This document shows positions 35,402-53,614 of a stretch of 55,334 nucleotides of DNA, one piece after another. Position numbers and translations under genes: made by a program. Each line of letters begins with the position of its first letter. Within the stretch, counting starts at the first letter, position 1. The stretch comes from a virus (lineage: Duplodnaviria > Heunggongvirae > Uroviricota > Caudoviricetes): positions 1 through 55,334 of IMG/VR virus record IMGVR_UViG_2737471838_000004; one strand, 5' to 3'. The notes under the pieces are model-generated. The model saw nothing but the letters and a program-made list of their open reading frames with translations. It made no database searches and was not told the origin of the DNA.

Positions 35402-35804
35402 TGTCACCCCACATATTAGTCGCGTATTCGTCAATATCCGGTAGTAGGTCGCCGCGTTCGCGGATCTTAATAAACAATCGCCCGCCTTTTACCTTCCGGC
35501 AGCGAACAATTTTTATAGAATCGATTTGTCCGTCATCAGTCCAGAATCCGGCGTATGTAAGGCTATCAAAAAGGCATTTAGGGATATTATCCAGATCTCT
35601 GGTTCGGTTATCCGGCGGCGCGGCATGAATGGTAATTGCCAGTCGGCAAGATAGGTTAATATTTAAATTTAATAGCTCGATGATGTTTCTTACCTGTTCC
35701 CGGTATTCTTTCCCCACTTTACTGATATAATGAAAACCTCGTGAATGCCGGTAATACCTATTATTCGATGGCGGGTAAGGCAGGCTAAAAGAATATTCAT
35801 TCAT
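35385..35804 (-). CDS. rusA: Holliday junction resolvase RusA
   Basis: 139 aa; motifs PPSNNRYY, RDLDN, GFW.DD typical of RusA. Confidence 0.85.
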   Translation of the reverse strand: MNEYSFSLPYPPSNNRYYRHSRGFHYISKVGKEYREQVRNIIELLNLNINLSCRLAITIHAAPPDNRTRDLDNIPKCLFDSLTYAGFWTDDGQIDSIKIVRCRKVKGGRLFIKIRERGDLLPDIDEYATNMWGDNEKRN

Positions 35805-36289
35805 GGAGGATTTCTCATTTCATATTTGTGAAAACCGTATTTTATTTCAGCGTCACGTCTAGCGCGTATTGCGTCTTCTATATCTTTAAACCTCCCTAAA
35901 TAGATTGTTTTGCCGTTTACATGTATAAAAGCGTCATAAGCGTTTTTATGGAAGTAGACCCCGGTTATTCCTAGTTTATTATTTTTCTGCACGTTCCTAT
36001 TTTGTTGGTTTTGCTGTGGAGTAACAAGAAACAGGTTTTCTATATTATTATTTAGTCGGTTTCTATCAAAATGATCTATTTGATACCCTTCCGGGATCGG
36101 GCCGTTGTGCATCTCCCAAATAATATGATGTGCCAAATACATGTTTTGTTTGTATTTTATTAATCTGTAAGACGTTGTGCTACTCACACAACCAGCAAGA
36201 TCACCGACACAAATTTTTCCGTGTTTTGGTTTTATTTTCCAGTAAAGATCGCCATTTCTATATTCAAATATATCACCCCAATTATGCAC
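35801..36289 (-). CDS. HNH homing-endonuclease-like protein (HNH + AP2-like)
   Basis: 162 aa; IWEMHNGPIPEGYQIDHFDRNRLNN...NLFLVT; paralog of 49570..50073 and 52979..53437. Confidence 0.75.
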   Translation of the reverse strand: MHNWGDIFEYRNGDLYWKIKPKHGKICVGDLAGCVSSTTSYRLIKYKQNMYLAHHIIWEMHNGPIPEGYQIDHFDRNRLNNNIENLFLVTPQQNQQNRNVQKNNKLGITGVYFHKNAYDAFIHVNGKTIYLGRFKDIEDAIRARRDAEIKYGFHKYEMRNPP

Positions 36290-36890
36290 ACTTACCTCTC
36301 CTTAAATCATCTAATTTTTTTTGATAGTATTGAATAAGCTCTTTACACTCCTGAATGGTCCATTTATGAGTCTCGTTATTATTTTCTAATGCCTCCACCC
36401 GTTTTAAGCCAATGCGCTTAATCAAATTAATTCTGTATAGTTTGATATTCCCGTCTAATACCTGATTGCAGTGCTTACATTGACGATGAATATTGTCCTC
36501 ATTAAAACGAAGATGCCCGGCGGCGGCTACACTTCTCATATGCCCCGCGTCCCAACCGCATTGATCGCCGTAGTAAGTGCCACACGAAATACAGGGTAAA
36601 TTTGCGTCGCGCTCTCTTATATACGCATTACATACCGCCTGGCACTGTTTCAACCAATAACTACGCGGATTTAACTGTTTCCGCTTACGGTTGCGTTCTT
36701 CCCGCTGGCTATCACGGCGTTTCTTCCGTTCCATCGCCTTCATAGCCTTCTCACGGTCGCGGCATAACTGGTCAAACTTCAGTTCTTCCAGACATTCATC
36801 GCTGCACCACGTTTGATTGTGATATTTAGGCTCAAAAAAAACGCCGCAGCATTTGCAACGGCGTCGTATGGGTTTTTTAGGGTTTTGCAT
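36282..36890 (-). CDS. ninG: NinG (Rap) recombination-associated protein
   Basis: ORF 36282..37019 trimmed to MQNPKKPIRRRCKCCG with GGGGTGG RBS; Cys-rich N-terminus and LPCISCG...DAGH...RFNE..NIH.QC..CN motifs of the NinG family. Confidence 0.75.
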   Translation of the reverse strand: MQNPKKPIRRRCKCCGVFFEPKYHNQTWCSDECLEELKFDQLCRDREKAMKAMERKKRRDSQREERNRKRKQLNPRSYWLKQCQAVCNAYIRERDANLPCISCGTYYGDQCGWDAGHMRSVAAAGHLRFNEDNIHRQCKHCNQVLDGNIKLYRINLIKRIGLKRVEALENNNETHKWTIQECKELIQYYQKKLDDLRRGKCA

Positions 36891-36904
36891 AAAAACCACC
36901 CCGA

Positions 36905-37081
36905 TTATTTTTGATTCTCTGTTTCGTTCAGCCTTTCGGCGTGTCCGGCCCTTAGCCAATGATCTAAACATTCGTTGCACTCGTTGCAGTCTCCTTTCTT
37001 CGTGCTGCATACATTGCACATTGCACGCATGACGCTTTCTCGTTCATAGTCGTCATGCCATTGGTAATTATCAAAAGGCAT
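36905..37081 (-). CDS. small Cys-rich (zinc-ribbon-like) protein
   Basis: hand-translated 58 aa MPFDNYQWHDDYERESVMRAMCNVCSTKKGDCNECNECLDHW...; AAGGAGA RBS. Confidence 0.4.
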   Translation of the reverse strand: MPFDNYQWHDDYERESVMRAMCNVCSTKKGDCNECNECLDHWLRAGHAERLNETENQK

Positions 37082-37240
37082 AATGCTCTCTCCTTTTCAG
37101 GTGATTTCTACGCATTTCAGCGCTGCCGGATTTTTAAAGAGCATTTCGTTTGCTTGAAGTATACAAAATGGATACACCATAACAAGACAAAAAGCGCCAT
37201 TATGTGATCCGCATCACGCAATGACGCCATTTTGTAAATT

Positions 37241-38023
37241 TCAGTCCGGTAAAACGCGGTTAAGCGTAGTACGATTGATGGCACGGTCGTTAGCAAGGAA
37301 TACAGCACGGGCAAAGCCACGCGGCGTTAGTGAGCGGATCATCTTTGTTCGTTTCGTCCTGCCTCCGGTTTTCGCCCACCCAGGGTTATCACCAGAGTTA
37401 AGATCTACAGGTCTAAAAAGCGGCTGTTTAAATCCGTTACCGCACCATATGCAAGTTTTCTTTGTATATGCGTCGCGCGGCGGGTAAACATCCGGGAAAG
37501 CAGGATGTTTGTCATCTTCCGGCAGGTAGCCACCGTAAGCGCAAGGATTGAAGATAAAATCAGGCTTACGCCATAACGTTGACAGTGCGCCCACCGGATT
37601 TTCCACCATCCACGGCACGTTGTACATATTTGCCAGTTTTTCCACCAGTTTTGCGCTATTCGCCGCCTTCACCTGGAAGCCTGGATCTTTTTTTCGCTTG
37701 TCAGCGAACCAGCGAGCGCCAGACACGGCGAGATCGTCGCATGGCGGAAAACCCATGATAATATCAGGCTCCGGGTAAACTGATAATTCAGGCGAGAACA
37801 TCACCAGGAAATGGCTATCAATCCATACGTTAACGTATTCAATATTTGGATGAATTATTTTAACGCCTTCATAATCGCCGTGATTTGCGCCGTCATAGTT
37901 GAAGCAATAGCACTTATATCCCGCTTCAGCCCAATCTTTAACTGCGTACCCGCTGCCGTCGTACAGCGACCACACAACCCAACTTCTTAGCCAGTTATTT
38001 AACCAGTGTTTAGCCTTTCTCAT
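37241..38023 (-). CDS. divergent DNA cytosine-C5 methyltransferase-like protein
   Basis: 260 aa; motif I-like LYDGSGYA, motif IV-like GFPPCDDLAVSG (PCD rather than PCQ), motif VI-like MVENPVG. Confidence 0.5.
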   Translation of the reverse strand: MRKAKHWLNNWLRSWVVWSLYDGSGYAVKDWAEAGYKCYCFNYDGANHGDYEGVKIIHPNIEYVNVWIDSHFLVMFSPELSVYPEPDIIMGFPPCDDLAVSGARWFADKRKKDPGFQVKAANSAKLVEKLANMYNVPWMVENPVGALSTLWRKPDFIFNPCAYGGYLPEDDKHPAFPDVYPPRDAYTKKTCIWCGNGFKQPLFRPVDLNSGDNPGWAKTGGRTKRTKMIRSLTPRGFARAVFLANDRAINRTTLNRVLPD

Positions 38024-38565
38024 TTTATGCCCTCAAACGTGAAATAGCGGCGCATGATGATAGTGATCACCGTTACCGCTGCCATTTTTGAGATGAATTG
38101 CATTGCTGATATTTCAGGCATAAACGCCATGAATGATAGCGTAGGAAAAATCAACGCATCGCCAATGGCTGACGCTATATTTGCAGGCCAGCGCTTAGAA
38201 TCGAAATCACCAGGCAAAACCCGGTAAACGCCGCCAGAAATAAGCGCACCGGAAACAACCGCAACGAATGACGCTATCGCCACCATTCCGGCGTCGTAAT
38301 TTATCAGCACAGTAATTGCGCCAGCGGCGGCGCATGTAGTAGCTGACCATTTCAGGCCGCCGTCATATAACAGAAAGTCACGGATCATCATATTGACATA
38401 CACAGCGGCTACCGTGGTGATCGGAATTACCCACGGGCCACAGTGGTTAACAATAAGGTTGATGATCACGAAAACGGCGACATAAACGCAGGCTAATAAC
38501 CTGTTAATTGTCACCCTTTCCATTTTTATGATACCCCGCCGCGCGTAATAGCGATTCGTTGTCAA
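38020..38565 (-). CDS. multi-pass integral membrane protein
   Basis: 181-aa ORF with 4-5 predicted hydrophobic helices; start may be the internal MERVTINR. Confidence 0.5.
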   Translation of the reverse strand: MTTNRYYARRGIIKMERVTINRLLACVYVAVFVIINLIVNHCGPWVIPITTVAAVYVNMMIRDFLLYDGGLKWSATTCAAAGAITVLINYDAGMVAIASFVAVVSGALISGGVYRVLPGDFDSKRWPANIASAIGDALIFPTLSFMAFMPEISAMQFISKMAAVTVITIIMRRYFTFEGIK

Positions 38566-39016
38566 ACTTCACATCAAGCCGATTAGTAATCTTACCACCG
38601 TTAAACATCACAGGTGGGATTGTCCCCAGTACAATAGATGGTTCTGGTCCAGCAGGATCAGCAAAAGTTTTCTTCAATCCACCGATAGGGAGATCAAAAA
38701 CGCCCTGTTTCTTTCTTTGTTCTTCCTCCCGCTCCGTTAATATTTGCTCCGCTTTTAGCGCGTTATAAGCAATAAGGTCTATAAGAGTATCGAGCGGGTC
38801 GCTACCATTGCTTAAAACGGCCTCTAATCGCGCCTCCTTGAGACAAATTAGCAGATCCCATACATCAAGCGGGGTTAAATTTGTCCCCTTCTTAGCGTTG
38901 TAAATATTTGCTATTTTTGGCGCTGATTTTTCTTCTTTTCGATCGTATCCGTTTTGTTCCCCTCTTGCCTCAATAGTTTCAGCCGCAAGTCTTAGCAATT
39001 CAGCCGCTTTACTCAT
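38504..39016 (-). CDS. hypothetical protein
   Basis: ORF 38504..39034 trimmed to MSKAAELL; function unknown. Confidence 0.45.
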   Translation of the reverse strand: MSKAAELLRLAAETIEARGEQNGYDRKEEKSAPKIANIYNAKKGTNLTPLDVWDLLICLKEARLEAVLSNGSDPLDTLIDLIAYNALKAEQILTEREEEQRKKQGVFDLPIGGLKKTFADPAGPEPSIVLGTIPPVMFNGGKITNRLDVKFDNESLLRAAGYHKNGKGDN

Positions 39017-39548
39017 TTTCTGCACCTCTTGCATATAGCTCTTTACGTGTTATCTGCGTGAAAATACATTCATGTCTGCATCGTGGATGCCAGATCAAGA
39101 ACAAACTCCCTTTATTGTTTCCGCTTGCTGGTTTACCCGTCGCAGCATTGATAAACGCCAGCCGCCCTCGCGTAATTAATCGGCATTCGTTTGCCGTCTC
39201 CACGCCGTTCATAAACCAGTTAACAGAGATGTCGGCGGGCAACAACATTACACAGCCAATATGATTTCGGTGATGTTCCGTTGCTGCCTTATCAACGAAT
39301 GGCCCCGGATTAGAATATGGTGGATTAAGCCAGACATACTCACCAGGCATTGCCACCGCTCCCCACGGATAATGCAACGTGTCCATTTCTTCTGTTATAT
39401 ATCGCGGGATTAATGCGTTTGCCTTGTTTGCCGCCACGTCAGCGACGAATTCGAATTCACGATCCATTCCTCTAAAAACTGGTTTTGGCGTTTGCCATAA
39501 GTCCTTTATTTCTTTTGGCGTATGGCTTCCGCCGTAATCATTTTTCAT
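39009..39548 (-). CDS. dam: DNA N6-adenine methyltransferase (phage Dam-like)
   Basis: 179 aa; catalytic NPPY motif in WLNPPYSNPGPFV. Confidence 0.8.
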   Translation of the reverse strand: MKNDYGGSHTPKEIKDLWQTPKPVFRGMDREFEFVADVAANKANALIPRYITEEMDTLHYPWGAVAMPGEYVWLNPPYSNPGPFVDKAATEHHRNHIGCVMLLPADISVNWFMNGVETANECRLITRGRLAFINAATGKPASGNNKGSLFLIWHPRCRHECIFTQITRKELYARGAENE

Positions 39549-39557
39549 TACGCCCCC

Positions 39558-39791
39558 TTAGAAATAATCCTGATCAGTCCCCCAGCGGTTATTTAGATAC
39601 CCCACCAACCACACAAAACGCTCAATGCTAATTAGCGGGGCGACCTTGCGATAATGCTTGTCGAGTATCAGCCGCGTGGCTTTATCGCTGTATCCGTTCT
39701 TTTCTACCTCCGCTTTGCAGGCAGAAAGCGCCGCGCGTGCGGCAGTTTTTACGGCGTTGAATTGCGGCTCTGACAGGTTGAATAAAGCCAT
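39558..39791 (-). CDS. hypothetical protein
   Basis: 77-aa ORF in early-left operon. Confidence 0.4.
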   Translation of the reverse strand: MALFNLSEPQFNAVKTAARAALSACKAEVEKNGYSDKATRLILDKHYRKVAPLISIERFVWLVGYLNNRWGTDQDYF

Positions 39792-39793
39792 AA

Positions 39794-40045
39794 TTAAAAA
39801 GGATCATCCCAATCTGGCGCGGCAGTCCAGCAAAACCCGATAAATGCACTAACCGTTAATAAAGCGCGCCCTGCGGCAAGGATCTCGCCTATTTCGTTAA
39901 ATTCAGGCAGTGACCACGTAATAAACATTGCCCCCAGCATAATAACAACGATAACAGCCATGAACGCCAGGAAAACAAAAAGCGTAGCTAAAAGCCACGC
40001 TCCCAACCAGTTTAAAAAGCTCTTAACCATTTTAAACGTCCTCAA
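39794..40045 (-). CDS. small membrane protein
   Basis: 83 aa with two hydrophobic helices. Confidence 0.4.
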   Translation of the reverse strand: MRTFKMVKSFLNWLGAWLLATLFVFLAFMAVIVVIMLGAMFITWSLPEFNEIGEILAAGRALLTVSAFIGFCWTAAPDWDDPF

Positions 40046-40235
40046 TCACCCCGTCTTTTACACGCTCTTTAATATCCCAAACGTGAGGCTTGCATATTTC
40101 CTGATAATAGTGATCTGGCCTGCTGCCAAAATACCATTTGCCATCCATATAAAAATAAACGCCAGAAAAATTTCCTGGCGCTGCCTTTGTTGCTGATTCT
40201 GGAATTTTCCATTCTTTATAGTGTTTAAACTTCAT
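40032..40235 (-). CDS. hypothetical protein
   Basis: 67-aa ORF. Confidence 0.35.
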   Translation of the reverse strand: MKFKHYKEWKIPESATKAAPGNFSGVYFYMDGKWYFGSRPDHYYQEICKPHVWDIKERVKDGVIEDV

Positions 40236-40419
40236 GAGCTTTTAAATAACCTCTTCTGAATGCTTTGATGTAAAGTCCTAGCCTTCTTATATGCTGAACG
40301 CCATCAATGATGCGCACTAAATAAATCGCCCCGTTTGCGTCAGATACAAAACGACAACCAAAACCAATGCCGACTAACTTCAGGTTTTCAGGTATTCTAT
40401 AATCAGTTTCCTGTTCCAT
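40225..40419 (-). CDS. hypothetical protein
   Basis: 64-aa ORF. Confidence 0.35.
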   Translation of the reverse strand: MEQETDYRIPENLKLVGIGFGCRFVSDANGAIYLVRIIDGVQHIRRLGLYIKAFRRGYLKAHEV

Positions 40420-40517
40420 GCCTCACCTCATATGGTATTCAATAAACCACCTGATAAACAGGCATAAGGCAATAAAACCCCAGCAAATGCACATAAATAA
40501 CAATGTGTCGTCCATAG

Positions 40518-40736
40518 TTAAGCCTCAATTAATCCGTAGTCGAATTTACCCAAATATCTTTCAAGGCTAACGACTTCAATACCATCTACACATCTCTTCC
40601 ACACAGACACCTGGCTTTCATTTTCCCTGAAGTGCATATTAGAAAGCACTTCATCGGCTGGATAGCTTTTCCCGGCGACGTAGGCATCATGACCTACGCC
40701 ACCTTCTACGCAATAAAGCATGAATTCGCGTTCCAT
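40518..40736 (-). CDS. hypothetical protein
   Basis: 72-aa ORF. Confidence 0.4.
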   Translation of the reverse strand: MEREFMLYCVEGGVGHDAYVAGKSYPADEVLSNMHFRENESQVSVWKRCVDGIEVVSLERYLGKFDYGLIEA

Positions 40737-40835
40737 TTTGGCTTCCTCCGCACCGTAAACCTTTTGATTTCGGCTTACAAAACGGATATGCGATCACAAT
40801 ACAAAATGTATATTTATGTGATCTGAATCACTCGG

Positions 40836-41456
40836 TTAATGCAGTACACGTTTTCCCTGTTCAGGCATCGGCTGTGCGTTTTTCCGTGCATCATTAAGCA
40901 CAGCGATAGCCGCCTGTACACCGAAATCATTTGCGCGCATATCATTGCCAACCATTTCACCGTAAAACAGCGGCATAAACGCTTTTACTTCTTCTTCTTT
41001 ATGGCCTTCCTCAATGCATTTCTGTAACATCTTAACTTCAAAGATGTTTTTCATCAGTCCGCGCATAGAATGCAGTGAAACACTACCAAGCTGATCCTTG
41101 TTCAACGGGAAAATAACAGCACTTCCGAACGCGAGCGGATCAACCTCTTCCGGCACTGGTACGCGTCCGAATTCTTCCTCCATGCGCTTCACAAAAGTAA
41201 GAGAGAATACATAACGCGCTACCGATGTTTTTTCTTCCATACTTAAAGACACGTAATCGCGGATTGACGCACCCATCACAATATCAACAACCTGTAGCGC
41301 CAGATTTAAATCAGCGTCATACGCGCCAGCTTCCATATCTTTCAATACTTCGTGATAATCCTTCGTTTCCACTTCATGAAAACTTGCGTCTTCAGTGTAG
41401 CGAGTGATTAACATGCCATCGCTGCCGAGTGAATAAGCTGTTTTGATGTCGTTCAT
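40836..41456 (-). CDS. hypothetical protein
   Basis: 206-aa ORF. Confidence 0.5.
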   Translation of the reverse strand: MNDIKTAYSLGSDGMLITRYTEDASFHEVETKDYHEVLKDMEAGAYDADLNLALQVVDIVMGASIRDYVSLSMEEKTSVARYVFSLTFVKRMEEEFGRVPVPEEVDPLAFGSAVIFPLNKDQLGSVSLHSMRGLMKNIFEVKMLQKCIEEGHKEEEVKAFMPLFYGEMVGNDMRANDFGVQAAIAVLNDARKNAQPMPEQGKRVLH

Positions 41457-41469
41457 GATGTTTAGCCTT

Positions 41470-41802
41470 TTATAGTGGGTGATGCCATTTCATTTCAGTT
41501 TCTGGATTAAACGGGTTTCCTTCTCTTGAAAGGAATAAATCACGCTCCCGTTTCAGTTCTTCCGGACTTATTTCTATTTCATCAATCTGACCGAACGATC
41601 CTGGCATCATTCGTTTTAAATCAGATAGCGGACGCATAAGGCCGCAACCGCGTAACAGCATATCGACCGCGAATTGCCGCCGCCCGCCAGCGTCATTGAA
41701 GCGCCGCGCCCAGGACACAACCACGATCCGGCGTTCGAACTCAATAAATAGTGATAGCTTGTTTGATTCTGCATCATATGCTTTATGGAATTTAATTTTC
41801 AT
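41470..41802 (-). CDS. hypothetical protein
   Basis: 110-aa ORF. Confidence 0.45.
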   Translation of the reverse strand: MKIKFHKAYDAESNKLSLFIEFERRIVVVSWARRFNDAGGRRQFAVDMLLRGCGLMRPLSDLKRMMPGSFGQIDEIEISPEELKRERDLFLSREGNPFNPETEMKWHHPL

Positions 41803-41983
41803 TTAACACCTCGACGTATTGCTCAAGATGCCATTGACCCACCTCGTCGTAATCTTCATCGAATATTGTTACTTGACCGCCTGGCCCGAAATAAAAGGCA
41901 GTAGCAATAAATTCATACCCGAACCACGCGCGGAGTTTTTCACCACCGTTCAGGTGTTTAACCTTCACTAATTTTATAGCCAT
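41792..41983 (-). CDS. hypothetical protein
   Basis: 63-aa ORF. Confidence 0.35.
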   Translation of the reverse strand: MAIKLVKVKHLNGGEKLRAWFGYEFIATAFYFGPGGQVTIFDEDYDEVGQWHLEQYVEVLNEN

Positions 41984-42246
41984 ACGCCGAACATCCCATT
42001 CAGACCAGCGAACAACCGCCGCCAGTGGTTTTCAACATAAGCCCGGAACGGCTTAACGCGAACATTGCGGGCCTTCAGTTCAATCTTGTCGAAGAAACGC
42101 GGCTCTATAATTGTTCCATCCAGATATTTAACCAGGATCGGGCGCTCAAGATCGTTATATGTCTTGTTCAGCACGACCAGCCCAGGGTCACTACGATATG
42201 CTGGCAAAACAACGAGATCACCAGCTTTTGCATTCCACGGAGTCAT
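41974..42246 (-). CDS. hypothetical protein
   Basis: 90-aa ORF. Confidence 0.4.
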   Translation of the reverse strand: MTPWNAKAGDLVVLPAYRSDPGLVVLNKTYNDLERPILVKYLDGTIIEPRFFDKIELKARNVRVKPFRAYVENHWRRLFAGLNGMFGVWL

Positions 42247-42483
42247 AACATCACCCCTTTACCAATAAGGCCAATCACCGCAGCCAGTGCGCCACAAAAG
42301 ACAACCGTAAACAGGAAGCAAATAACGCAAAACGCGACCGTTACAATATCATTACTGACTTTCATAATTAGCCTCACATATTAGTAATCAGTTTTATGAT
42401 CGCCACCGTAATATAAAGCGATACGCTGAGATACAGCACCGCCACCGCTACCGCCGCAAGCAATGCGGCAATTTTTGCAAGAT

Positions 42484-42735: not shown

Positions 42736-42748
42736 GATTAACACCTCA

Positions 42749-45024: not shown

Positions 45025-45050
45025 GCAAAGAAAAGCCGCCATCCGGCGGC
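45025..45050 (-). terminator. rho-independent terminator after repressor gene
   Basis: GCCGCCGGATGGCGGC hairpin followed by TTTTCTTTG on the minus strand. Confidence 0.55.
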
Positions 45051-45056
45051 TAATGT

Positions 45057-45704
45057 TTATGGCAGGTTCACGATCTTCGCATCCACTACCACGCCTATGA
45101 TTTTAGATTCTGGATTCATAGGGATTGGCGGATACAGAGGATTGAGAGAACGTAAAAGCCTTTGACCTCCATCAATAACAAGCTGTTTAAACGTAGGCGT
45201 TTGCCCTTCCTCCAGTTGGGCTATAACCAGTTTTCCGTCAATAGCTGGCGCGTGCGGATCGACAAGTATCATCGTCCCCGCTGGTATACTCAATCCTTGC
45301 GGCGCGTTCATTGATTCGCCTTTAGCTACCAGCCAATAACTATCATCTGAACAAATAACGCTAGTCGTAACGTGTGGTAATGTTGATCGCCTTGTGTCTT
45401 CCATATTGTTTACTGCGTCCTTCCAGTCAACAACCGGGTAACTGCCTAAATCACGCGGCGGCGCACCCGGCAACGTGTTAGAAACAGAATCATCAATGAC
45501 CATTCCGTCATGAGTAACAGTGAATTGCCGACGACCAAGCGCCCGCATAATCCGCGCAATGTCTTCAAGATTTGGCTCACGGCGACCATTCAGCCAGTGT
45601 GATAAGCCGCCTTTCGTGATCCCCATGAGATCCGCCAATGAATCCTGGCTCATGCCTTGCGCACGCATAAGCTGCTTTGCTAAGTCATACCATTTTGTTT
45701 TCAT
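45057..45704 (-). CDS. cI: CI-like immunity repressor (HTH + S24 LexA-like autopeptidase domain)
   Basis: 215 aa; N-terminal HTH (QDSLADLMGITKGGLSHWLNGRR), C-terminal S24 motifs GESM and FKQL. Confidence 0.85.
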   Translation of the reverse strand: MKTKWYDLAKQLMRAQGMSQDSLADLMGITKGGLSHWLNGRREPNLEDIARIMRALGRRQFTVTHDGMVIDDSVSNTLPGAPPRDLGSYPVVDWKDAVNNMEDTRRSTLPHVTTSVICSDDSYWLVAKGESMNAPQGLSIPAGTMILVDPHAPAIDGKLVIAQLEEGQTPTFKQLVIDGGQRLLRSLNPLYPPIPMNPESKIIGVVVDAKIVNLP

Positions 45705-45870
45705 GTCGCTACCCTATAACCTCAAAAAGTTTGACGCAAGTCACAAAACGTATTTTTCAAGCCTTGATCTTAAAGCTCCATTCTGTAAACTTTCAGACAA
45801 GGTAAGACCATACTTGCAAGGATGCAAGAAAAAAGATAATGGAAAGCACAAAAAGGCACATACCTTAAAA

Positions 45871-45902
45871 GCTCTTTAAAAACCAGGTGTCGCTGCGAAG
45901 CG
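45871..45902 (+). promoter_or_regulatory. nutR-like site: boxA-like (GCTCTTTAAAAA) + 8-nt spacer + small GNRA-type hairpin
   Basis: in the cI/right-operon intergenic region upstream of the first plus-strand gene; weaker match than nutL. Confidence 0.3.
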
Positions 45903-46009
45903 AAAAACAAATATCACGCAACGGCGGGATCTGTTGAGCGGTCAGTCACTGCTATCTAATGCTAATGGGATACCCGCCCGCGCGTTCACTCTAATCATAG
46001 GAGAAAAAT

Positions 46010-46255
46010 ATGTATTACGTGCGCAAGGCTTTTGATATTCGCCTGAATAACAATGATCCGGCGCAAAAACTCATCTTAATTGCACTGGCAACAAAGGCCG
46101 GATGCAACGGTAAAAGCGAAGTAACGCCGGAAGAGATCGCTGAAATGTGCGAAATTTCGTTACGAGATACTATCTCTGCACTTCATCAACTGAAAAGAAG
46201 CGGCCTGATCAGCCAGCTGCCAGGTTTCTTCTGTGTTTATCAGTTGATGTTCTAG
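46010..46255 (+). CDS. small HTH protein, first gene of rightward operon (possible Cro-like / initiator-N-domain paralog)
   Basis: 81 aa; AGGAG RBS; resembles N-terminal HTH domain of the following O-like protein. Confidence 0.45.
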   Translation: MYYVRKAFDIRLNNNDPAQKLILIALATKAGCNGKSEVTPEEIAEMCEISLRDTISALHQLKRSGLISQLPGFFCVYQLMF

Positions 46256-46276
46256 TTTATCAGGAGGCCAATATTT

Positions 46277-47305
46277 ATGAGTATGCGGCTAATGGTCGAG
46301 GTATTCCATACTGAGGTCGGGAACCCAATGCACAAACTAGTGCTGTTGAAGTTAGCTGATAACGCTAATGATAACGGCGAGTGTTACCCTTCTTACCATC
46401 ACATAGCAAAGGAATGCGAGATCAGTAAGAGTACAGCAATGAGGGCTGTCGACGCACTTTGTGAAAAAGGTCTATTGATTAAACAACCAAGATACTTAAT
46501 CGGAGGAAAGGAGCAAACGAGTAACTTCTATGTGATAGTTCTGCCATCATTGCAGGGTAGTGTCACAGTGACACCGGGGGTAGTGTCAGAGAGACACCAG
46601 GGTAGTGTCACAGTGACACCGGGGGTAGTGTCAGAGAGACACCAGGGTAGTGTCACAGTGACACCGGGGGTAGTGTCAGAGAGACACCCTAATCAGTCAT
46701 ATATAACCAGTAAAGAGAACATTAAGAACAATACACTTCGTGTATTGGAAAAAGACGAGTCTATCAGCGAAGAAGATCGGGTGGCTGATTTGGCAGCGTC
46801 GCGCGTACTCGATCACTATAACAACAAGTTTAATAGCAAGCATAAGGAGAAAAAATACTTTGTTAACCTACTGAAGAAGACAAAAACACGAGGCGCATAT
46901 ACTGAAGAAGATTTGATCATGGTTATCGACTGGATAGCGGAAACATGGTCGTTTAAACCGGAACCGATAAAGATCGCCAGGGTAAGCCGCTTTGATGAAT
47001 ACCGGGCAAAGGCTGAACAATGGCGAAGAGTTACAGCTACTGTAAACGCTGCCGATGTGGTGGAAGAGTTTAACATCACGTTTGATGGACTGTTGCCACC
47101 TGCCGAACTTGATCGTGATCTTGAACGCAAGATCTATGCGTTCACTGACTACCTGAAAGACAAAAGCATTAACGGCTTTATCGCCTACTTTGAAGCGTTC
47201 AAAAACACGGCTTCAGATTTTTACTTCGGCAATGGCTTCACTGCGACACTTGATTTCCTGCTTAAACCAAAAACGCTACGTGATACACGCGCTGGCGCTC
47301 TTTGA
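46277..47305 (+). CDS. replication initiation protein (lambda O-like) containing internal iteron array
   Basis: 342 aa; N-terminal HTH domain, linker encoded by 3 x 45-bp direct repeats (QGSVTVTPGVVSERH x3), C-terminal domain. Confidence 0.7.
   Translation: MSMRLMVEVFHTEVGNPMHKLVLLKLADNANDNGECYPSYHHIAKECEISKSTAMRAVDALCEKGLLIKQPRYLIGGKEQTSNFYVIVLPSLQGSVTVTPGVVSERHQGSVTVTPGVVSERHQGSVTVTPGVVSERHPNQSYITSKENIKNNTLRVLEKDESISEEDRVADLAASRVLDHYNNKFNSKHKEKKYFVNLLKKTKTRGAYTEEDLIMVIDWIAETWSFKPEPIKIARVSRFDEYRAKAEQWRRVTATVNAADVVEEFNITFDGLLPPAELDRDLERKIYAFTDYLKDKSINGFIAYFEAFKNTASDFYFGNGFTATLDFLLKPKTLRDTRAGAL
46553..46687 (+). repeat. origin iterons: 3 tandem 45-bp repeats, each two about 22-bp sub-iterons with internal dyad GTGTCAC..GTGACAC / GTGTC..GACAC
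   Basis: perfect tandem copies of CAGGGTAGTGTCACAGTGACACCGGGGGTAGTGTCAGAGAGACAC inside the O-like gene, followed by an AT-rich stretch. Confidence 0.8.
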
Positions 47306-47438
47306 CCAACCACGATACACAAAAACCCAAAATAACCAACCAAGCAAGCTCACCAGCGAGCTAAATTGCATTGGGTGCTACACTTGCATACCTTTAGATG
47401 TTTATCTCGTTAGAGAGCGTTTTAGAGAGGATTTTAAA

Positions 47439-47540
47439 ATGGACGGTAAACACATTTTCGCCCTGGCTTTTGCCATCGCTGCTGCAATCGCTGTTAACGT
47501 AGCGTTGTTCGGCGGTTTGTTCCTTCTTGTCAATCCATAA
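47439..47540 (+). CDS. possible small membrane peptide (33 aa)
   Basis: hand-identified MDGKHIFALAFAIAAAIAVNVALFGGLFLLVNP with GAGAGG RBS. Confidence 0.3.
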   Translation: MDGKHIFALAFAIAAAIAVNVALFGGLFLLVNP

Positions 47541-47672
47541 CCTTCATACCAGTCTGTAAGTCAAAAATTAGCCACCTGAAAGCGCCTCTGACGCAATAAG
47601 ACACTGCAACCTGTGCAATCGGGTTACGCGGTGGGATTTTTGCGTTGTAGCGCGTTTTACGGAGAAATTACA

Positions 47673-48416
47673 ATGTCTGAGTTGATGAGTTTTAATTTTG
47701 ATAACAATAAAATCACTGCTGTAATTTATGACGGTAAACCTGCTTTCGTTGCAATGGATGTGGCGCGGGCGTTAGGGTACGCAACTCCGCAAAAAGCAAT
47801 TAGTGACCACTGTAAGTCATTGATAAAAATAAAATGTTCTGAAATGGAACATTTGGGATTCACTCCAATCCCGCAAGGAGTAACGCTAATCCATGAATCA
47901 GATGTTTACCGTCTGGTGATGCGTTCAAAAATAGAATCGGCTGAGCGCTTCCAGGATTGGGTGTGTGAGGAGGTTCTCCCTGCTTTGCGTGAAAATGGAC
48001 ATTACGGTTTTAAACCAGCTTTGCCGGATTTCACTGACCCAGTCGCTGCGGCTCGCGCATGGGCGGATGAGGTGGAGAAAAAACGATTAGCACAGAAAGA
48101 AGTTGATCGTCTGGCGCTGGAAAACAAGGAATTAGCGCCAAAAGCGGCTGTCTGTGATGCGATTGTAAAAAATAAACAGCATCGCAATGCTACACAGGTT
48201 GCCAAGCCTTTGGGTATGACTGCTACGCAACTCAACAAAAAACTTGAACAGGTTGACGTGTACGATACTCGAATTAAGCGCGGCGGGCGTATGTTCAAAC
48301 AGTGGTTCGTAGATGAAGGCTATGGAGTGGTAAAATGTTCGGCTGATGGTTACGTCCAATCACTATTTACTGCTAAGGGCCAGATTTGGGTATCTGAACT
48401 TTTTGCTTGTAAGTAG
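47673..48416 (+). CDS. Bro-N domain antirepressor-like protein
   Basis: ORF 47613..48416 trimmed to MSELMSFNF with GGAGAAA RBS; N-terminal Bro-N-like region (FNFDNNKITAV...AMDVARALGY). Confidence 0.65.
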   Translation: MSELMSFNFDNNKITAVIYDGKPAFVAMDVARALGYATPQKAISDHCKSLIKIKCSEMEHLGFTPIPQGVTLIHESDVYRLVMRSKIESAERFQDWVCEEVLPALRENGHYGFKPALPDFTDPVAAARAWADEVEKKRLAQKEVDRLALENKELAPKAAVCDAIVKNKQHRNATQVAKPLGMTATQLNKKLEQVDVYDTRIKRGGRMFKQWFVDEGYGVVKCSADGYVQSLFTAKGQIWVSELFACK

Positions 48417-48449
48417 GTATACATTTTGTTAACTGGAGGAATTAACATT

Positions 48450-49580
48450 ATGTCGCAAAGAAAAATCAGCGATGAACAATTGATCGCTGAATACAACAAC
48501 GGTTTAACGTACAAACAGATCGCTGAAAAGTACGGCATGTCTAAACGCAATGTCGAACGCCTGGGCGCAAAACTGGCAAAACGCGGTTTAATATCAACAC
48601 GCCGCGCGCCTGGTTTTAGCGTTACTGGCGAGTCAGTGCTTGTTGACAATAACGGGAATACAGTCATGCGCTGGATTAAAACAGCCCGTGACCGCGACGA
48701 AATGGAAATGCTAATGGAAGCTGCACGCGACGCTTTCACGGATGAAATACCACGCGCGGAGGCCGTGCCAGTTCCGGAAATTGATTTTCAAAAAAGCCTG
48801 GCTCTTTATCCGGTATTTGATCTGCATATCGGGGCGCTTGCTCATAAAGCTGAATGCGGCGAGAGCTACGACACTGGGATCGCTGAGCGCGTGTTGAATG
48901 ACTTCTTTGACTACGCCGTTGGCGCTGCGCCGATGTCTGAAAAAGCTGTATTGCTTCTCGGTGGCGATCTGCTTCACTCTGACGGTATGGTCCCGGTGAC
49001 GCCAACAAGCGGGCACATTCTTGATCAAGATAGTCGCTACGCAAAACTTGTTTATGTGGCGATCCGGTCTGTCCGTCGTGCGGTAGGGAAGATGTTGCTA
49101 AATCATAAGGATGTGGAAATCCAGGTGTTATCAGGGAATCATGACCAGTCTGGTATGATTTGGCTACGTGCGGCGCTGGCGGCTTTTTACGAAGATGAAC
49201 CGCGCGTGACGGTTGATGTGTCCCCTGCCATCGTCCACCACACACAGTACGGAAAAACGTTCCTTGCTTACCACCACGGGCACACTATCAAAAAGCCTGA
49301 AAATTTATTGTCTGCTTGCGTCTCTGACTGGCGGGAAGACTTTGGCAAGTCAAAATATGTTTACGTACATGTGGGCCATTTGCACCATAAATCAGTGACA
49401 GAATCATCTATAGGCATAGTTGAACATCATGGCACGTTAGCGGGAAAAGACGCTTATTCAACTAATGGAGGATGGAGATCGCAACGTTGCGCTGCGGTTA
49501 TCATTTACAGTCCTGACTATGGCGAAATTGGTCGCTTTGTATATAGGCCTGAAATGGTGGAGTGTCATAATGTGGGATGA
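48450..49580 (+). CDS. HTH-domain protein fused to calcineurin-like metallophosphoesterase domain
   Basis: ORF 48426..49580 trimmed to MSQRKISDE (GGAGG RBS); N-terminal HTH (LTYKQIAEKYGMSKRNVERL); phosphoesterase motifs DLHIG, GGDLLHSD, GNHD, GHLHH. Confidence 0.55.
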   Translation: MSQRKISDEQLIAEYNNGLTYKQIAEKYGMSKRNVERLGAKLAKRGLISTRRAPGFSVTGESVLVDNNGNTVMRWIKTARDRDEMEMLMEAARDAFTDEIPRAEAVPVPEIDFQKSLALYPVFDLHIGALAHKAECGESYDTGIAERVLNDFFDYAVGAAPMSEKAVLLLGGDLLHSDGMVPVTPTSGHILDQDSRYAKLVYVAIRSVRRAVGKMLLNHKDVEIQVLSGNHDQSGMIWLRAALAAFYEDEPRVTVDVSPAIVHHTQYGKTFLAYHHGHTIKKPENLLSACVSDWREDFGKSKYVYVHVGHLHHKSVTESSIGIVEHHGTLAGKDAYSTNGGWRSQRCAAVIIYSPDYGEIGRFVYRPEMVECHNVG

Positions 49581-50073
49581 TTTATTTACCTATAGTGACG
49601 GCGTTCTATATTGGTCTTGTAATCGTGCAAACAACAAAATAAAAGCAGGTAGCGTGGCTGGATGTAAACATTATCGCGGATATTGGACTGTACGCGTTAA
49701 TGGTATTTGTTGCACATGGCGTCACCGCATTATCTGGGAAATGTTTAACGGCCCTATTCCTGATGGAATGGAAATAGATCACATAAATCATGTACCTGGT
49801 GATGATAGAATCGAAAACTTAAGGATGGTGACAAGGAAGGAGAATAACAGAAACAAAACAATGCCATCAAGTAACACTAGCGGATGCGTTGGCGTTACGT
49901 GGAACAAGAAAACCAATAAATGGCGTGCGCAAATAGGTATAAGGGGGTCTGATGGGAAAAAGAAAACAATATACGTTTATTACGGTGACTCATTTGATGA
50001 TGCCGTAAAAGCAAGAAAAGAAGCTGAAAGAATGTATAACTTTCATAGCAATCACGGCATTTCTTTACCATGA
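49570..50073 (+). CDS. HNH homing-endonuclease-like protein (HNH + AP2-like)
   Basis: ORF 49465..50073 trimmed to MWDDLFTYSDGVLYW; IIWEMFNGPIPDGMEIDHINH...NLRMVT. Confidence 0.75.
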   Translation: MWDDLFTYSDGVLYWSCNRANNKIKAGSVAGCKHYRGYWTVRVNGICCTWRHRIIWEMFNGPIPDGMEIDHINHVPGDDRIENLRMVTRKENNRNKTMPSSNTSGCVGVTWNKKTNKWRAQIGIRGSDGKKKTIYVYYGDSFDDAVKARKEAERMYNFHSNHGISLP

Positions 50074-50107
50074 ATATTCCATTTTGTAAACCGGAGGCAA
50101 TAACATA

Positions 50108-51523
50108 ATGGTAACTGAGCAAATAAACTCGCTACGGCAGGAACGTGAGGCGTCAGTTATCGGCGGGCTACTGTTAGGTGGCCTTACTCCTAACGCGCAA
50201 GATGTTCTCGCCACACTTGATCCTGAAGTGTTCACGATCCCGCTTTATAAACGTGCGTTTGAAGTTATCCGGGCACAAGCCAGAAACAGGAATCTCATCG
50301 ATGCATTGCTGGTCGGTGATGAGATTGGTAATGAAAATTTCGTACCGCTGATGCAAACGGCGCGATCGTGCCCTTCTGCTGCCAACCTGAAGGGATACGC
50401 ACAGTTACTACGTGAAGAGCACCAGCGGCGGCAGATGTTGGAACTTATCGACGATATACGCTACAAGCTGGAGACGGGGACGCTAGAGGTCGTCAAAGAG
50501 ACGATGAAAGATTTTGATTCCCGGTATTCAAAATTAAAGGTAACGAAAGACAAGATTATCCCCGTTCTGTTGCGCGATGCGGTCCAGGAGTACACAGAAG
50601 TTTTAAGTAAGCGCATGGAATGCGGTGTCAATTCTGACAACATCAAAACAGGGATAGAACCACTCGACGAAATGTTAGGCGGCATTAACGCTACTGATTT
50701 AGTGCTTCTCGCCGGACGCCCTGGGTCTGGTAAATCTGCGTTGGCGCTGACAATTGCACGCGCTGCTGCTGAACGCCCTTACCCTGGAAGCAAGGATCAG
50801 CGGGTTGGCGTTTTGTTCTTCACGCTTGAAATGTCACTCGATCAGATGACTGAACGCGCTATCGCTGGCGCTGGCAATTTATCAACTGACTGCCTGCGCA
50901 ATCCGGTAAAACTTGATGATGAGGGGTGGGCGCATGTAGGCCAGGGGATGAGCGCACTTGCTAACCTTGAGGTGTGGATCGTTGACGCATCGCAGTTAAC
51001 GGTTGAGGAAATACGCGCAACAACGGAACGCATGAAGCAGGATCACCCGAACTTGGGTATGGTAATGATTGATTATATCGGTTTAATGCAGCTTGCTAAG
51101 GCAGAACGTCACGATCTCGCCGTGGGGCAATTATCGTGGTCGTTAAAGATGATGGCGAAAGAATTGCGTGTACCAGTGTTGGCGCTGGCGCAACTGTCAC
51201 GCCGCGTTGAGGAACGACCGAACAAGCGCCCTAACAATTCTGATCTTCGTGATTCTGGCAACCTTGAGCAAGATGCCGACAGGATCATCATGGTTTACCG
51301 CGATGGGTATTACGACGAGCAGTCTGTTGCCCGCGAATACATGGAAATCATTGTGTCAAAAAACCGTCATGGTAAGTCTGGAACTGTTTACCAGCGGTTT
51401 GATGACAACGGTAATATCTTGCCATGCGACCAGGCGCGCGCAGCCGCAGCGTGTATTCAGTCAATGAATCATCGCACAAGCCGTTTTAACCAACGAAACA
51501 ATCAGAATAACACATCTTTTTAA
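50108..51523 (+). CDS. dnaB: replicative DNA helicase (DnaB-like)
   Basis: 471 aa; DnaB N-terminal domain, Walker A GRPGSGKSA, RecA-like C-terminal domain. Confidence 0.85.
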   Translation: MVTEQINSLRQEREASVIGGLLLGGLTPNAQDVLATLDPEVFTIPLYKRAFEVIRAQARNRNLIDALLVGDEIGNENFVPLMQTARSCPSAANLKGYAQLLREEHQRRQMLELIDDIRYKLETGTLEVVKETMKDFDSRYSKLKVTKDKIIPVLLRDAVQEYTEVLSKRMECGVNSDNIKTGIEPLDEMLGGINATDLVLLAGRPGSGKSALALTIARAAAERPYPGSKDQRVGVLFFTLEMSLDQMTERAIAGAGNLSTDCLRNPVKLDDEGWAHVGQGMSALANLEVWIVDASQLTVEEIRATTERMKQDHPNLGMVMIDYIGLMQLAKAERHDLAVGQLSWSLKMMAKELRVPVLALAQLSRRVEERPNKRPNNSDLRDSGNLEQDADRIIMVYRDGYYDEQSVAREYMEIIVSKNRHGKSGTVYQRFDDNGNILPCDQARAAAACIQSMNHRTSRFNQRNNQNNTSF

Positions 51524-51602
51524 TCAATATGAGCAAACGGCTTACCGGAAAGTTTACCGCTTTCTGGTGGCTGTTATCGCGTTTTAAATGAGGCTAAAAA
51601 CA

Positions 51603-52160
51603 ATGAGCGCTGAACTTGAAACAAAAGTTATCAATATCCTTGAACTTGATGGCATCGCAACAATGCACCAGTTACGCAATAAAACGGGGTTATTGGCTGG
51701 ATATGACAAAAACGGGTTACTTCCTGAGGCAATTAAACACTTAATAAAAAACGGTATCGTCGAGCGCGTATATACATGTTTTGGACGCCGCCGCCGTCTG
51801 CTGGGCTATCGTATTAAACAGTTATATGCTGAACGTCGTGAGAGTGTTGCGTCGTTATTTAGTGACTACAGCGTTAAAAAGCGTATGCGCGACATTAGCG
51901 CTGAAACGGGAATACCGTGGAATTATCTATCTCGTACTCTGCGTTTAATGGTTATTGATGAAACGCTTTGCGTTGACCCTAACCGACACGGGGTAAATTT
52001 TTACTCATTGTTTAAACCTGGGCGCTTCGGTCACGCTAATGATTTGGCGTTTGACTTTGACAGCCGCCTGAACGAATACCGGAAAAATAACGGCCTGCTA
52101 CCGGATAAACCAGTATTTGAGATTGAAAAACTTAACGGTGAAACGGGGTTGGAATTATGA
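51603..52160 (+). CDS. hypothetical protein
   Basis: ORF 51588..52160 trimmed to MSAELETKV. Confidence 0.45.
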   Translation: MSAELETKVINILELDGIATMHQLRNKTGLLAGYDKNGLLPEAIKHLIKNGIVERVYTCFGRRRRLLGYRIKQLYAERRESVASLFSDYSVKKRMRDISAETGIPWNYLSRTLRLMVIDETLCVDPNRHGVNFYSLFKPGRFGHANDLAFDFDSRLNEYRKNNGLLPDKPVFEIEKLNGETGLEL

Positions 52161-52363
52161 GACGTGTAATTTTTTATTCAGTTGAAACATTCATTGACGA
52201 ATCTCACTTTAAATTTCCATGCAATTCTTGCGGCGCGATGGTTTATACACCTCCACTAATGCGCAAGTACAGGCACGTAAAATTTAACCGGGCTTTTGTG
52301 CCGATTCGTTACGCTTTGCAGGCGTTGCGCGGTGAATTACGGAACACAATGCGGATTGTGTAA
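52157..52363 (+). CDS. hypothetical small protein
   Basis: 68-aa ORF overlapping stop of previous gene. Confidence 0.4.
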   Translation: MRRVIFYSVETFIDESHFKFPCNSCGAMVYTPPLMRKYRHVKFNRAFVPIRYALQALRGELRNTMRIV

Positions 52364-52372
52364 GGTGAGATC

Positions 52373-52570
52373 ATGAATAAAGAGTTAGATTTAACAGTTG
52401 AAGACTTGAGCACGATTGCGGAATACATGCGAGGTGACGATCCTGATAAGCCTGTTGTTGTTGATATGAGGTACTTAAAAAGCGCTTTTATGACAAGCTC
52501 GCGCCTAATTTCTTTGCGGGCGATCATGTATGCGCGGGCGCAGTGGAAAAATAGTAACGGTGTATCATGA
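52373..52570 (+). CDS. hypothetical small protein
   Basis: 65-aa ORF. Confidence 0.4.
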   Translation: MNKELDLTVEDLSTIAEYMRGDDPDKPVVVDMRYLKSAFMTSSRLISLRAIMYARAQWKNSNGVS

Positions 52571-52986
52571 GGCAAATTAGATTTGAGATAGTAAACGACG
52601 CCGTGAAAGAAAATGCTGTCAGGCAGATAAGAGAGATCCAGCCTGATAGCAAAAGCCCGCTGATAATTACCATCCAGGAGAAAACCCGCTCGCTAAGTCA
52701 AAATGCGAGACTGCACGCCATGCTATCTGATATAGCAAGGCAAGCTGAGTATTTAGGCAAAAAAAGAACCATTGATTTTTGGAAGGGTTTATTTGTTTCT
52801 GGATGGATGATTGCTACTGGGTATAAAGCTGAAATAATTCCAGGGCTTGAAGGTGAGTTTATCAATATAAGGGTAAGCACTACAACTTTAAGCAAACGAG
52901 ATTTAAACGAATTAATGGAATATATCGAAGCATGGTGCGTCGCCAATGGTGTAAGATTATCAACGTGGAGAGTATATAATGGTTGA
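52567..52986 (+). CDS. ninB: NinB (Orf) recombination mediator
   Basis: 139 aa; NinB-family signature (ITIQEKTRSLSQNARLHAMLSDIARQ). Confidence 0.8.
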   Translation: MRQIRFEIVNDAVKENAVRQIREIQPDSKSPLIITIQEKTRSLSQNARLHAMLSDIARQAEYLGKKRTIDFWKGLFVSGWMIATGYKAEIIPGLEGEFINIRVSTTTLSKRDLNELMEYIEAWCVANGVRLSTWRVYNG

Positions 52987-53437
52987 TTGGCATTATTACT
53001 TTGAATATAGGGAAGGATTTTTGTATTGGAAGGTGAATCCTTCATGCAAAATAAAGGCTGGAGCATTGGCTGGAAGTTTCAGCCATCGCGGATACATGAA
53101 GGTAAGCATAAATAAAAGGCGTTATTATGTTCATCGGATTGTTTGGGAAATGCACAACGGCCCAATCCCTGTTGGGTATGAGGTGGATCATATAGATAGG
53201 AATCCATCCAATAATTTAATTCAGAATTTACGCCTTGTTACTCATAGGGTTAATATGAGGAACCAACCTCCTAAGACTAATAGCGGATGCATGGGTGTAT
53301 CATGGTATAAAGCATATAATAAATGGCAGGTTAGAATTAAAGTTGATGGTGTTACTTTATTTATAGGGTATTTTGAAAAATTAAGTGACGCAATAAATGC
53401 GAGAAAGGAAGCTGAATCTAAGTATTGGGGGCAATAA
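52979..53437 (+). CDS. HNH homing-endonuclease-like protein (HNH + AP2-like)
   Basis: 152 aa; YVHRIVWEMHNGPIPVGYEVDHIDRNPSNN...NLRLVT. Confidence 0.75.
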   Translation: MVDWHYYFEYREGFLYWKVNPSCKIKAGALAGSFSHRGYMKVSINKRRYYVHRIVWEMHNGPIPVGYEVDHIDRNPSNNLIQNLRLVTHRVNMRNQPPKTNSGCMGVSWYKAYNKWQVRIKVDGVTLFIGYFEKLSDAINARKEAESKYWGQ

Positions 53438-53613: not shown

Positions 53614-53614
53614 C

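Follow-up and report, generated by a model that had tools for sequence, protein, structure and literature searches.

Stand-alone homing endonuclease genes (HEGs) are known from several phages, and here we set beside them four HNH endonuclease genes, designated HNH_A to HNH_D, of a temperate prophage. The prophage accounts for nearly all of a 55,334-nucleotide (55.3-kb) stretch of DNA from the host E. coli (IMG/VR record IMGVR_UViG_2737471838_000004), which we refer to as the window. The HNH(HNN)-AP2 family was defined by Magnani et al. (2004), according to the passages citing that work in PMC2248197 and PMC10448857, and multi-copy HNH-AP2 HEGs have been described in phages (PMC2248197, PMC10448857). 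The Xanthomonas phages Xp10, OP1 and Xop411 carry 6-8 such copies (PMC2248197), which resemble the genes of the window in combining an N-terminal HNH/HNN nuclease that lacks cysteine dyads with a C-terminal AP2 domain, in lying as stand-alone open reading frames (ORFs) between genes, and in occurring as several divergent copies per genome whose presence varies among related phages. The systems differ in their carrier, which here is a temperate prophage from a coliphage family described only recently, and in the mode of insertion, which is site-specific here, with the same junctions reused by different alleles, whereas the Xoo paper concluded that transmission looked sequence-independent. In intronless homing, cleavage takes place hundreds of base pairs (bp) away from the HEG, the flanks are co-converted along with it, and the allele so converted becomes immune (PMC2988022). 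The free-standing HEGs of phage T4 (Seg and Mob) offer a likeness in their intergenic stand-alone position, in flanking co-conversion and localized marker exclusion, and in a target presumed to lie hundreds of bp off in a neighbouring gene; MobE, in addition, is an HNH enzyme. Unlike the four genes studied here, the Seg proteins are GIY-YIG enzymes and the Mob C-termini are of the Zn-finger type and not AP2, and T4 is a lytic phage for which activity was shown experimentally, whereas that of the present genes is predicted. I-HmuI of the Bacillus phage SPO1 (PDB 1U3E), with only ~23-25% sequence identity to the four, is intron-encoded, ends in a helix-turn-helix instead of an AP2 domain, and nicks one strand.

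That nuclease genes lie at boundaries of genetic exchange has already been published (Barth, Dunham and Seed, 2023; PMC10448857). The HEG islands of that study and the I-HmuI-like HNH genes of Skunavirus (PMC12724721) resemble our locus in the sharp identity boundaries between related phages, in the reuse of one locus by distinct HEGs, in an HNH phylogeny that tracks the insertion site and in the lowered identity of adjacent core genes; marker exclusion has likewise been reported for the I-HmuI-like HNHs (PMC12724721). Those systems, however, reside in lytic Vibrio, E. coli and Lactococcus phages. The IPA-HNH domains of ICP1, moreover, have diverged beyond the reach of Pfam HNH_3, of which the four genes described here are canonical members.

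Compared with these systems, the genes of the window are probably free-standing HNH-AP2 HEGs that were acquired independently and that would spread by intronless homing with one-sided co-conversion, a reading that we hold with good confidence from sequence comparison. All four ORFs are present where an earlier note on this DNA had placed them, although the range under which they were filed (35801-53437) covers HNH_B, HNH_C and HNH_D and omits HNH_A, and the strands were not stated. HNH_A (window positions 8497-9063, minus strand, 188 amino acids (aa)) combines an HNH_3 nuclease with an AP2-like C-terminal domain and lies between the tail assembly gene I and the tip attachment gene J. The remaining three are HNH-AP2 genes as well: HNH_B (35801-36289, minus strand, 162 aa) is located between NinG and RusA, HNH_C (49570-50073, plus strand, 167 aa) in the final codons of the gene that precedes dnaB, and HNH_D (52979-53437, plus strand, 152 aa) downstream of NinB. 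For HNH_C, we prefer the ATG at 49570, as annotated in the related phage mEp021, over the longer ORF that opens at 49465.

Membership of the four in one endonuclease family, as claimed in the earlier note, is well founded. Pfam HNH_3 (PF13392) scored 41.5 bits for HNH_A, 79.3 for HNH_B, 76.3 for HNH_C and 79.5 for HNH_D, in each case above the gathering cut-off of 24.8 bits, and all four matched phrog_99 ("HNH endonuclease") with E values of 1e-34 to 1e-61. When a profile of the four was compared with solved structures, I-HmuI (PDB 1U3E) was the one significant match (E 4e-6), covering the N-terminal 100 residues. The counterparts of its residues D74, H75, N87 and N96 (D-H...N...N) are invariant in HNH_A to HNH_D and throughout family alignments of 119 and 120 sequences, so that the catalytic His and Asn residues, whose loss would have spoken against the assignment, are intact. 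The sequence signature proposed earlier, HRI[VI]WEM.NGPIP...IDHI...NLR.VT, fits HNH_B, HNH_C and HNH_D well and HNH_A only loosely (HRIVFELCSGRKLKRGEIIDHIDGNGLNNKFNNIRVT). AlphaFold models of HNH_A and HNH_D predict an I-HmuI-like nuclease, with a beta-beta-alpha-metal fold and an N-terminal beta-sheet DNA-binding module, followed C-terminally by an AP2/ERF fold in which a three-stranded sheet packs on a helix. At the sequence level, Pfam AP2 (PF00847) gave no match in HNH_A, HNH_B or HNH_D and reached 23.1 bits (E 9.5e-5) in HNH_C, under its cut-off of 33.3 bits; some database homologues of the HNH genes carry a precomputed PF00847 match. Given that HNH_B and HNH_C can be aligned to HNH_D over their full length, the HNH-AP2 architecture is confirmed by predicted fold for HNH_A and HNH_D and by full-length homology for HNH_B and HNH_C.

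We next consider how these genes are distributed among close relatives. On sequence comparison, the prophage belongs to the mEp021/mEpimmI family: its early half is 88-91% identical over 72-84% to mEp044, mEp013, mEp515 and mEp021, and ~50 E. coli chromosomal prophages are related at a similar level. IMG/VR relatives were fetched around DnaB, RusA and I, yielding ~35-45 close relatives per site. In mEp044, all four sites are empty and the flanking genes adjacent, whereas mEp021 has sites A and C only occupied, by genes annotated "putative HNH endonuclease". Site A is filled in 0/42 of the IMG/VR relatives. Site B is filled in 1/36, by another allele in the relative L047, and in the other 35, as in mEp021 and mEp044, NinG is directly coupled to RusA. 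Two of 42 relatives carry a gene at site C, one the same allele (L006, 99% aa identity) and one a different allele (L007, 60% aa identity); counting mEp021, whose copy is 98% identical in aa sequence to HNH_C, site C is filled in 3/~44, with ~40 relatives empty. For site D, the count is 0/42, or 0/44 with the mEp phages. Among 5,426 complete E. coli genomes, the HNH_B allele was found once and those of HNH_A, HNH_C and HNH_D never. A protein identical to HNH_B is encoded on 14 contigs, and in 8/8 places among the matches listed it lies between NinG and RusA; HNH_D was seen in the source genome and one read set only, the latter possibly from the same strain. Presence and absence therefore alternate at the same site among close genomes, with flanking genes intact and abutting wherever a copy is missing, which is the behaviour of selfish insertions and agrees with the selfish character that the earlier note ascribed to this endonuclease family.

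Inspection of the junctions revealed that homology to relatives breaks within a few nucleotides (nt) of the HNH ORF ends. At site A, an insert of ~571 bp (~8500-9070, minus strand) stands in place of a 12-nt spacer; HNH_A takes over the former ribosome-binding site of J and supplies a new one, and its TAG overlaps the ATG of J. The first codons of J (8487-8504, minus strand) are synonymously recoded in HNH_A carriers, reading ATGTCTAGTGGTGGCGGT in the window, ATGTCTAGTGGCGGCGGT in mEp021 and ATGAGTAGCGGCGGCGGC in genomes with an empty site, all of which encode MSSGGG; this recoding creates the HNH_A stop codon. At site B (insert ~35820-36296, minus strand, between NinG and RusA), the GTG start of HNH_B overlaps the NinG stop and its TGA overlaps the RusA ATG, mirroring the NinG-RusA coupling of empty genomes. 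The insert at site C (~49554-50064, plus strand) falls within the final codons of the gene that precedes dnaB, so that the protein encoded there ends in ...PEMVECHNVG* instead of ...PEFSIL*. At site D, 718 bp (52708-53425, plus strand) replace ~280 bp of the relatives: homology to all of them ends at 52707, inside NinB, and restarts at 53426, at the native NinB end "TGGGGGCAATAATGG", so that the last residues of HNH_D (WGQ*) are the old NinB terminus. Each HNH gene is consequently a stand-alone ORF with its own start and stop, overlapping or abutting its neighbours, and neither an intron nor an intein. As there is no room for an own promoter at any of the four sites, the genes ride the phage operons. 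A comparison of the four insertion points for a shared target motif returned only generic features of the empty sites, namely a stop codon and the ribosome-binding site of the next gene; since the enzymes are only 27-46% identical, no shared target would be expected.

The divergence of the adjacent sequence provides the main evidence for mobility. The 3' ~400 nt of NinG (36290-36700, minus strand) form a divergent allele linked to HNH_B, a candidate co-conversion tract and, in HNH-less alleles, a candidate target region. This tract is 98-100% identical in seven other HNH_B carriers as compared to 59-78% to HNH-less relatives, whereas upstream of it most relatives of both groups are at ~92-100% identity and a few genomes with an empty site fall to 70-85% in one or two bins. 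Relative to L046, the distal part of NinG is 96% identical in nt and 100% in aa sequence and the 399-nt tract 69% and 80%; across the profiles, the part of NinG further upstream shows 96-97% nt and 100% aa identity. HNH_B and the NinG tract together form a cassette that is 98-100% identical in seven other prophage backgrounds, with the RusA side ranging from 60% to 100%. At site C, the 3' ~300 nt of the upstream gene (tract 49270-49569 of the gene 48426-49580, plus strand) likewise constitute a divergent allele linked to HNH_C, being 91-96% identical to HNH_C carriers (group means 92-95%) versus 70-88% to empty relatives (means 73-83%); compared with L004 and L043, the distal part of the gene has 90-93% nt identity and the proximal 300 nt 76-78%. 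The 3' ~280 nt of NinB (52708-52978, plus strand) are a foreign allele associated with HNH_D: the distal 123 nt of the gene are 91% identical in nt sequence and the proximal 279 nt 48% (35% aa), with no other carrier available for comparison, and the chimeric NinB as a whole still scores 148 bits on Pfam NinB. A divergent flanking tract linked to the HEG, as expected from co-conversion, is thus seen for HNH_B, HNH_C and HNH_D (400, 300 and 280 nt), and on the downstream side the HNH stop codon itself forms the boundary. Searches for a donor of the NinB-3'/HNH_D segment gave no source. With megablast, the 5,426 complete E. coli genomes gave matches to no more than the first 148 nt, where NinB is still native, a blastn search of 50,697 phage records reached only 69% identity to the ninB of Stx phages, the best protein identity in IMG/VR was 48%, and the GTDB species representatives gave a single 36% match.

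These tracts also bear on the idea that the endonucleases mark or drive mosaic module exchange. A sharp mosaic joint does accompany three of the four genes, yet the exchange is sub-genic and does not involve whole modules, since the exchanged unit consists of the endonuclease gene and the final ~0.3-0.4 kb of the gene upstream of it. Nor are the sites module junctions, as had been proposed; they are gene boundaries inside conserved, syntenic modules (I-J in the tail region, NinG-RusA in the nin region, and the position upstream of DnaB in the replication region).

In the mechanism that we propose, each HNH gene would be translated within the surrounding operon during lytic growth, because all four overlap or abut the stop and start codons of their neighbours. 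On meeting a co-resident related phage genome that lacks the HEG, the enzyme would nick or cut the HEG-less allele, presumably in the last few hundred nt of the upstream gene in the case of HNH_B, HNH_C and HNH_D, or near the I-J junction in that of HNH_A. Recombinational repair would then copy the donor stretch from the cut site through the HEG, and the product, a cassette of the upstream gene's 3' end and the HEG, should be immune to recutting because its sequence differs. We infer from the divergent segments that the targets lie in the replaced 3' parts of NinG, of the gene upstream of dnaB and of NinB, and near I-J for HNH_A; site-specific cleavage and current activity of the four enzymes are likewise predictions. 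What the comparisons and models themselves establish is the homology, fold and intact catalytic residues of the enzymes, their presence or absence at exact sites, the linked divergent tracts, the near-identical cassettes in different backgrounds and, from the substitution ratios given below, functional constraint.

Several observations weigh against this interpretation. At site A, a linked tract was not apparent: the J 5' end is 79-83% identical to empty relatives as compared to 83-84% further in, and it does not clearly stand out from the remainder of J, a gene that is divergent throughout. For HNH_D, mobility would have to be argued without a second background, given its presence in the source genome and one possibly same-strain read set only. 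In mosaic temperate phages, moreover, ordinary recombination, whether homologous or illegitimate, can also leave divergent tracts beside accessory genes. Of the seven HNH_B carriers, six share the left boundary of the NinG tract and only L208 extends further, a pattern suggestive of repeated homing though not decisive; the shared boundary is compatible with one old recombination joint followed by ordinary recombination around it, instead of repeated homing. Finally, I-HmuI is a nicking enzyme, and nicks may not suffice for homing here.

Although homing remains the explanation we favour, the nucleases may instead be domesticated, kept because they benefit the phage, either by cutting competitors (marker exclusion or interference) or by acting together with neighbouring recombination and replication genes, and thus not be purely selfish. 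Marker exclusion by phage HNH enzymes is documented (PMC2988022, PMC12724721), interference competition by an intron endonuclease is mentioned, as a cited finding, in PMC12724721, and three of the four genes adjoin genes of DNA metabolism (NinG/RusA, DnaB and NinB). In addition, the ratios of nonsynonymous to synonymous substitution (dN/dS), 0.07 for HNH_A and 0.03-0.16 for HNH_C, indicate that the HNH genes are under purifying selection, which is strong, and all four are intact. However, nearly all close relatives lack the HNH genes, which are therefore not needed for the functions of their neighbours, and the proposed benefit overlaps with an HEG lifestyle instead of excluding it. We consider this explanation unlikely, though it fares best among the alternatives.

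The intactness of the genes argues against the view that they are decaying relics, once mobile and now inactive passengers heading for loss. HEG life-cycle models predict such degeneration after fixation (PMC2248197), and the absence of a known second host background for HNH_D would fit. All four, however, are full-length ORFs with invariant catalytic residues and, as far as determined, dN/dS values well below 1, and the 98-100% identity of the HNH_B cassette in seven other backgrounds implies recent spread. Furthermore, a hidden Markov model (HMM) built from the four genes and applied, with the --max setting, to every six-frame window ORF of at least 30 aa detected only these four below E=1, with no further copy and no truncated HNH or AP2 remnant in the window. 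Decay is accordingly a quite improbable account of the present genes.

We also asked how the four copies are related to each other. BLASTP identities are 46% for HNH_B and HNH_D, 45% for HNH_C and HNH_D, 37% for HNH_B and HNH_C, and 27-34% for HNH_A against the others (E 7e-12 to 3e-17), values that place homology far beyond chance, so that the copies did not turn out to be unrelated on alignment. The term "paralogous" used for them earlier, in the sense of a single gene that reached its four positions by duplication or transposition inside the prophage, nevertheless had to be abandoned. Such an expansion would account for the common domain architecture and PHROG family, but the aa identities do not exceed 46%, the copies share no DNA similarity, and each has numerous closer relatives in other phages, its co-residents ranking 16th to 128th of 129 comparators. 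In a neighbour-joining tree, the four do not form a clade, and HNH_A, HNH_B and HNH_C each occur singly at the same sites in other phages. In-genome duplication, rejected by the phylogeny, is thus highly improbable, and we regard the four genes, on these comparisons, as independent acquisitions. HNH_B, HNH_C and HNH_D are, in addition, AT-rich, which points to a foreign origin: HNH_B has a GC content of 35.6%, and the three range from 35.6% to 39.5% as compared to 46.1% for the window. The nearest non-self relatives of HNH_A in the comparison set are HNH genes at the I-J site (L169, 51%; L170, 37%), and L169, L170 and L171 carry HNH genes at I-J although their I protein is only ~57% identical; the enzyme lineage therefore tracks the insertion site. 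The remaining alternative, that the genes encode terminase-associated packaging proteins of the HK97 gp74 type, deserves almost no credence: HNH packaging cofactors are common in siphophages (PMC10448857), but the terminase genes (24800-26766) are distant from HNH genes at ~8.5, 36, 49.6 and 53 kb and conserved adjacency is lacking, the four are HNH_3 proteins with an AP2 domain, and relatives package without them, so that position and dispensability led us to reject it.

Having arrived at independently acquired HEGs as the preferred interpretation, we compared their number with that in other phages. The load of four, called high in the earlier note, is the highest seen in the mEpimmI family, in which the relatives compared have 0-2 copies at these sites, but it is unexceptional for phages at large, as illustrated by the Xanthomonas phages. 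The HNH family is large (1,525 clusters at E<=1e-10), and tblastn matches to it occur in 2,288/50,697 phage records. A few of these genomes have 3-4 places, and 3-4 matches were obtained for several coliphages and Klebsiella phages with the same HNH query.

Further HNH genes were noticed in relatives and other phages. Several relatives carry an additional HNH_3 gene (175-192 aa, ~38% identical to HNH_C) upstream of NinG (L209, 2422-3000; L213, 2422-2949; L214, 1532-2059; L048 and L060, 1427-1942), where it replaces a gene for a putative cytosine methyltransferase of 252-262 aa that is found in the window (37241-38023) and in other relatives. This position has the appearance of a fifth polymorphic site for HEGs among these phages. 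A sixth site is seen in L148 (530-967, minus strand), whose HNH gene, 46% identical to HNH_D, lies on the opposite strand in an accessory region between tail genes, upstream of the tail gene K. In the database protein P0042 (298 aa, 19 member sequences), an HNH-AP2 endonuclease is joined in frame to a full RusA resolvase, possibly owing to a read-through call; an HNH gene directly before RusA is therefore also found in other phages, there as one fused ORF. In L047, positions 2886-3000 are ~89% identical in nt sequence to HNH_B (window 35801-35911) over the last ~110 nt only, the region of the AP2 C-terminal helix, and this shared 3' end suggests recombination between the HEG alleles themselves.

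As for the genes flanking the four sites, J, NinG, RusA and NinB were confirmed by Pfam on the window proteins and DnaB by precomputed Pfam matches on the source contig. At E<=0.001, Pfam returned no match for tail protein I (9077-9607, minus strand) or for the product of 48426-49580 (plus strand). The label "phosphoesterase" given to the latter hence lacks Pfam confirmation, but it agrees with the metallophosphoesterase-like motifs GDLLH, GNHD and GHLHH and with a homologue in a Klebsiella phage annotated "DNA repair exonuclease".

The prophage itself is bounded by abgT of E. coli (window 1-1446, 99.4% identity to E. coli genomes) at one end and by a tyrosine integrase gene (54441-55334, minus strand), within which the window ends, at the other. 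On the source contig (GCA_000798435.1; JUDG01000015.1), ogt and fnr-like genes follow the integrase, and these flanks place the integration site between abgT and ogt/fnr on an E. coli chromosome; L207 (6918-8380) also bears on this position. Two divergent arms can be distinguished, a rightward early operon with replication genes and NinB (45057-55334) that reaches up to the integrase, and a long leftward arm (1596-44113) that starts with recombination genes, continues with NinG/RusA/Q and the lysis, terminase and head genes, and finishes with the tail genes. This order is non-lambdoid and common to mEp021 and mEp044. Within a replication-initiator-like gene (46277-47305), a perfect tandem array of three 45-bp units, alternatively 5.9 units of 23 bp, spans 46553-46688 (plus strand) and encodes the repeated peptide GSVTVTPGVVSERHQ; by its sequence, it looks like origin iterons inside an O-like (HTH_36) initiator gene, as in lambda. 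Between J and the tail-fibre gene, the opposite strand carries a small ORF (4268-4516, plus strand) with a lipoprotein signal and lipobox (MKNMFKVVLFAAAVALTGC...); it probably encodes the Lpp-type superinfection-exclusion lipoprotein that has been reported from mEpimmI phages (PMC11893012).

The mEpimmI group was recently proposed as a new family, in a paper that makes no mention of HNH or homing endonucleases (PMC11893012). While homing endonucleases of the HNH-AP2 class, genomes that carry several of them and exchange boundaries marked by HEGs were all described before, our analysis adds a clean natural data set from this recently defined family of temperate coliphages. It comprises four exact insertion sites with many empty alleles each, and thereby ready pairs of putative cut and immune sequences for target mapping, as well as a cassette, HNH_B together with 400 nt of NinG, that recurs nearly unchanged in seven further prophage backgrounds. 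For annotation, it explains the chimeric 3' ends of NinG, NinB and the gene upstream of DnaB in this prophage. More tentatively, and with less than even confidence, we suggest that HNH-AP2 HEGs might be homing actively at present in a temperate, gut-prevalent coliphage family, that the HNH_B cassette might be sweeping through prophage backgrounds, and that one-sided cassettes of a 3' gene end and an HEG might be among the principal causes of sub-genic mosaicism in core recombination and replication genes, namely NinG, NinB and the gene that precedes DnaB. Polylysogeny or superinfection of lysogens would be the arena. Should this be true, HNH_D and the foreign C-terminal half of NinB would record a cross-family transfer from an unsampled donor phage. 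The genes described here may also yield new rare-cutting nickases and may provide a tractable system for homing in temperate phages of the human gut.

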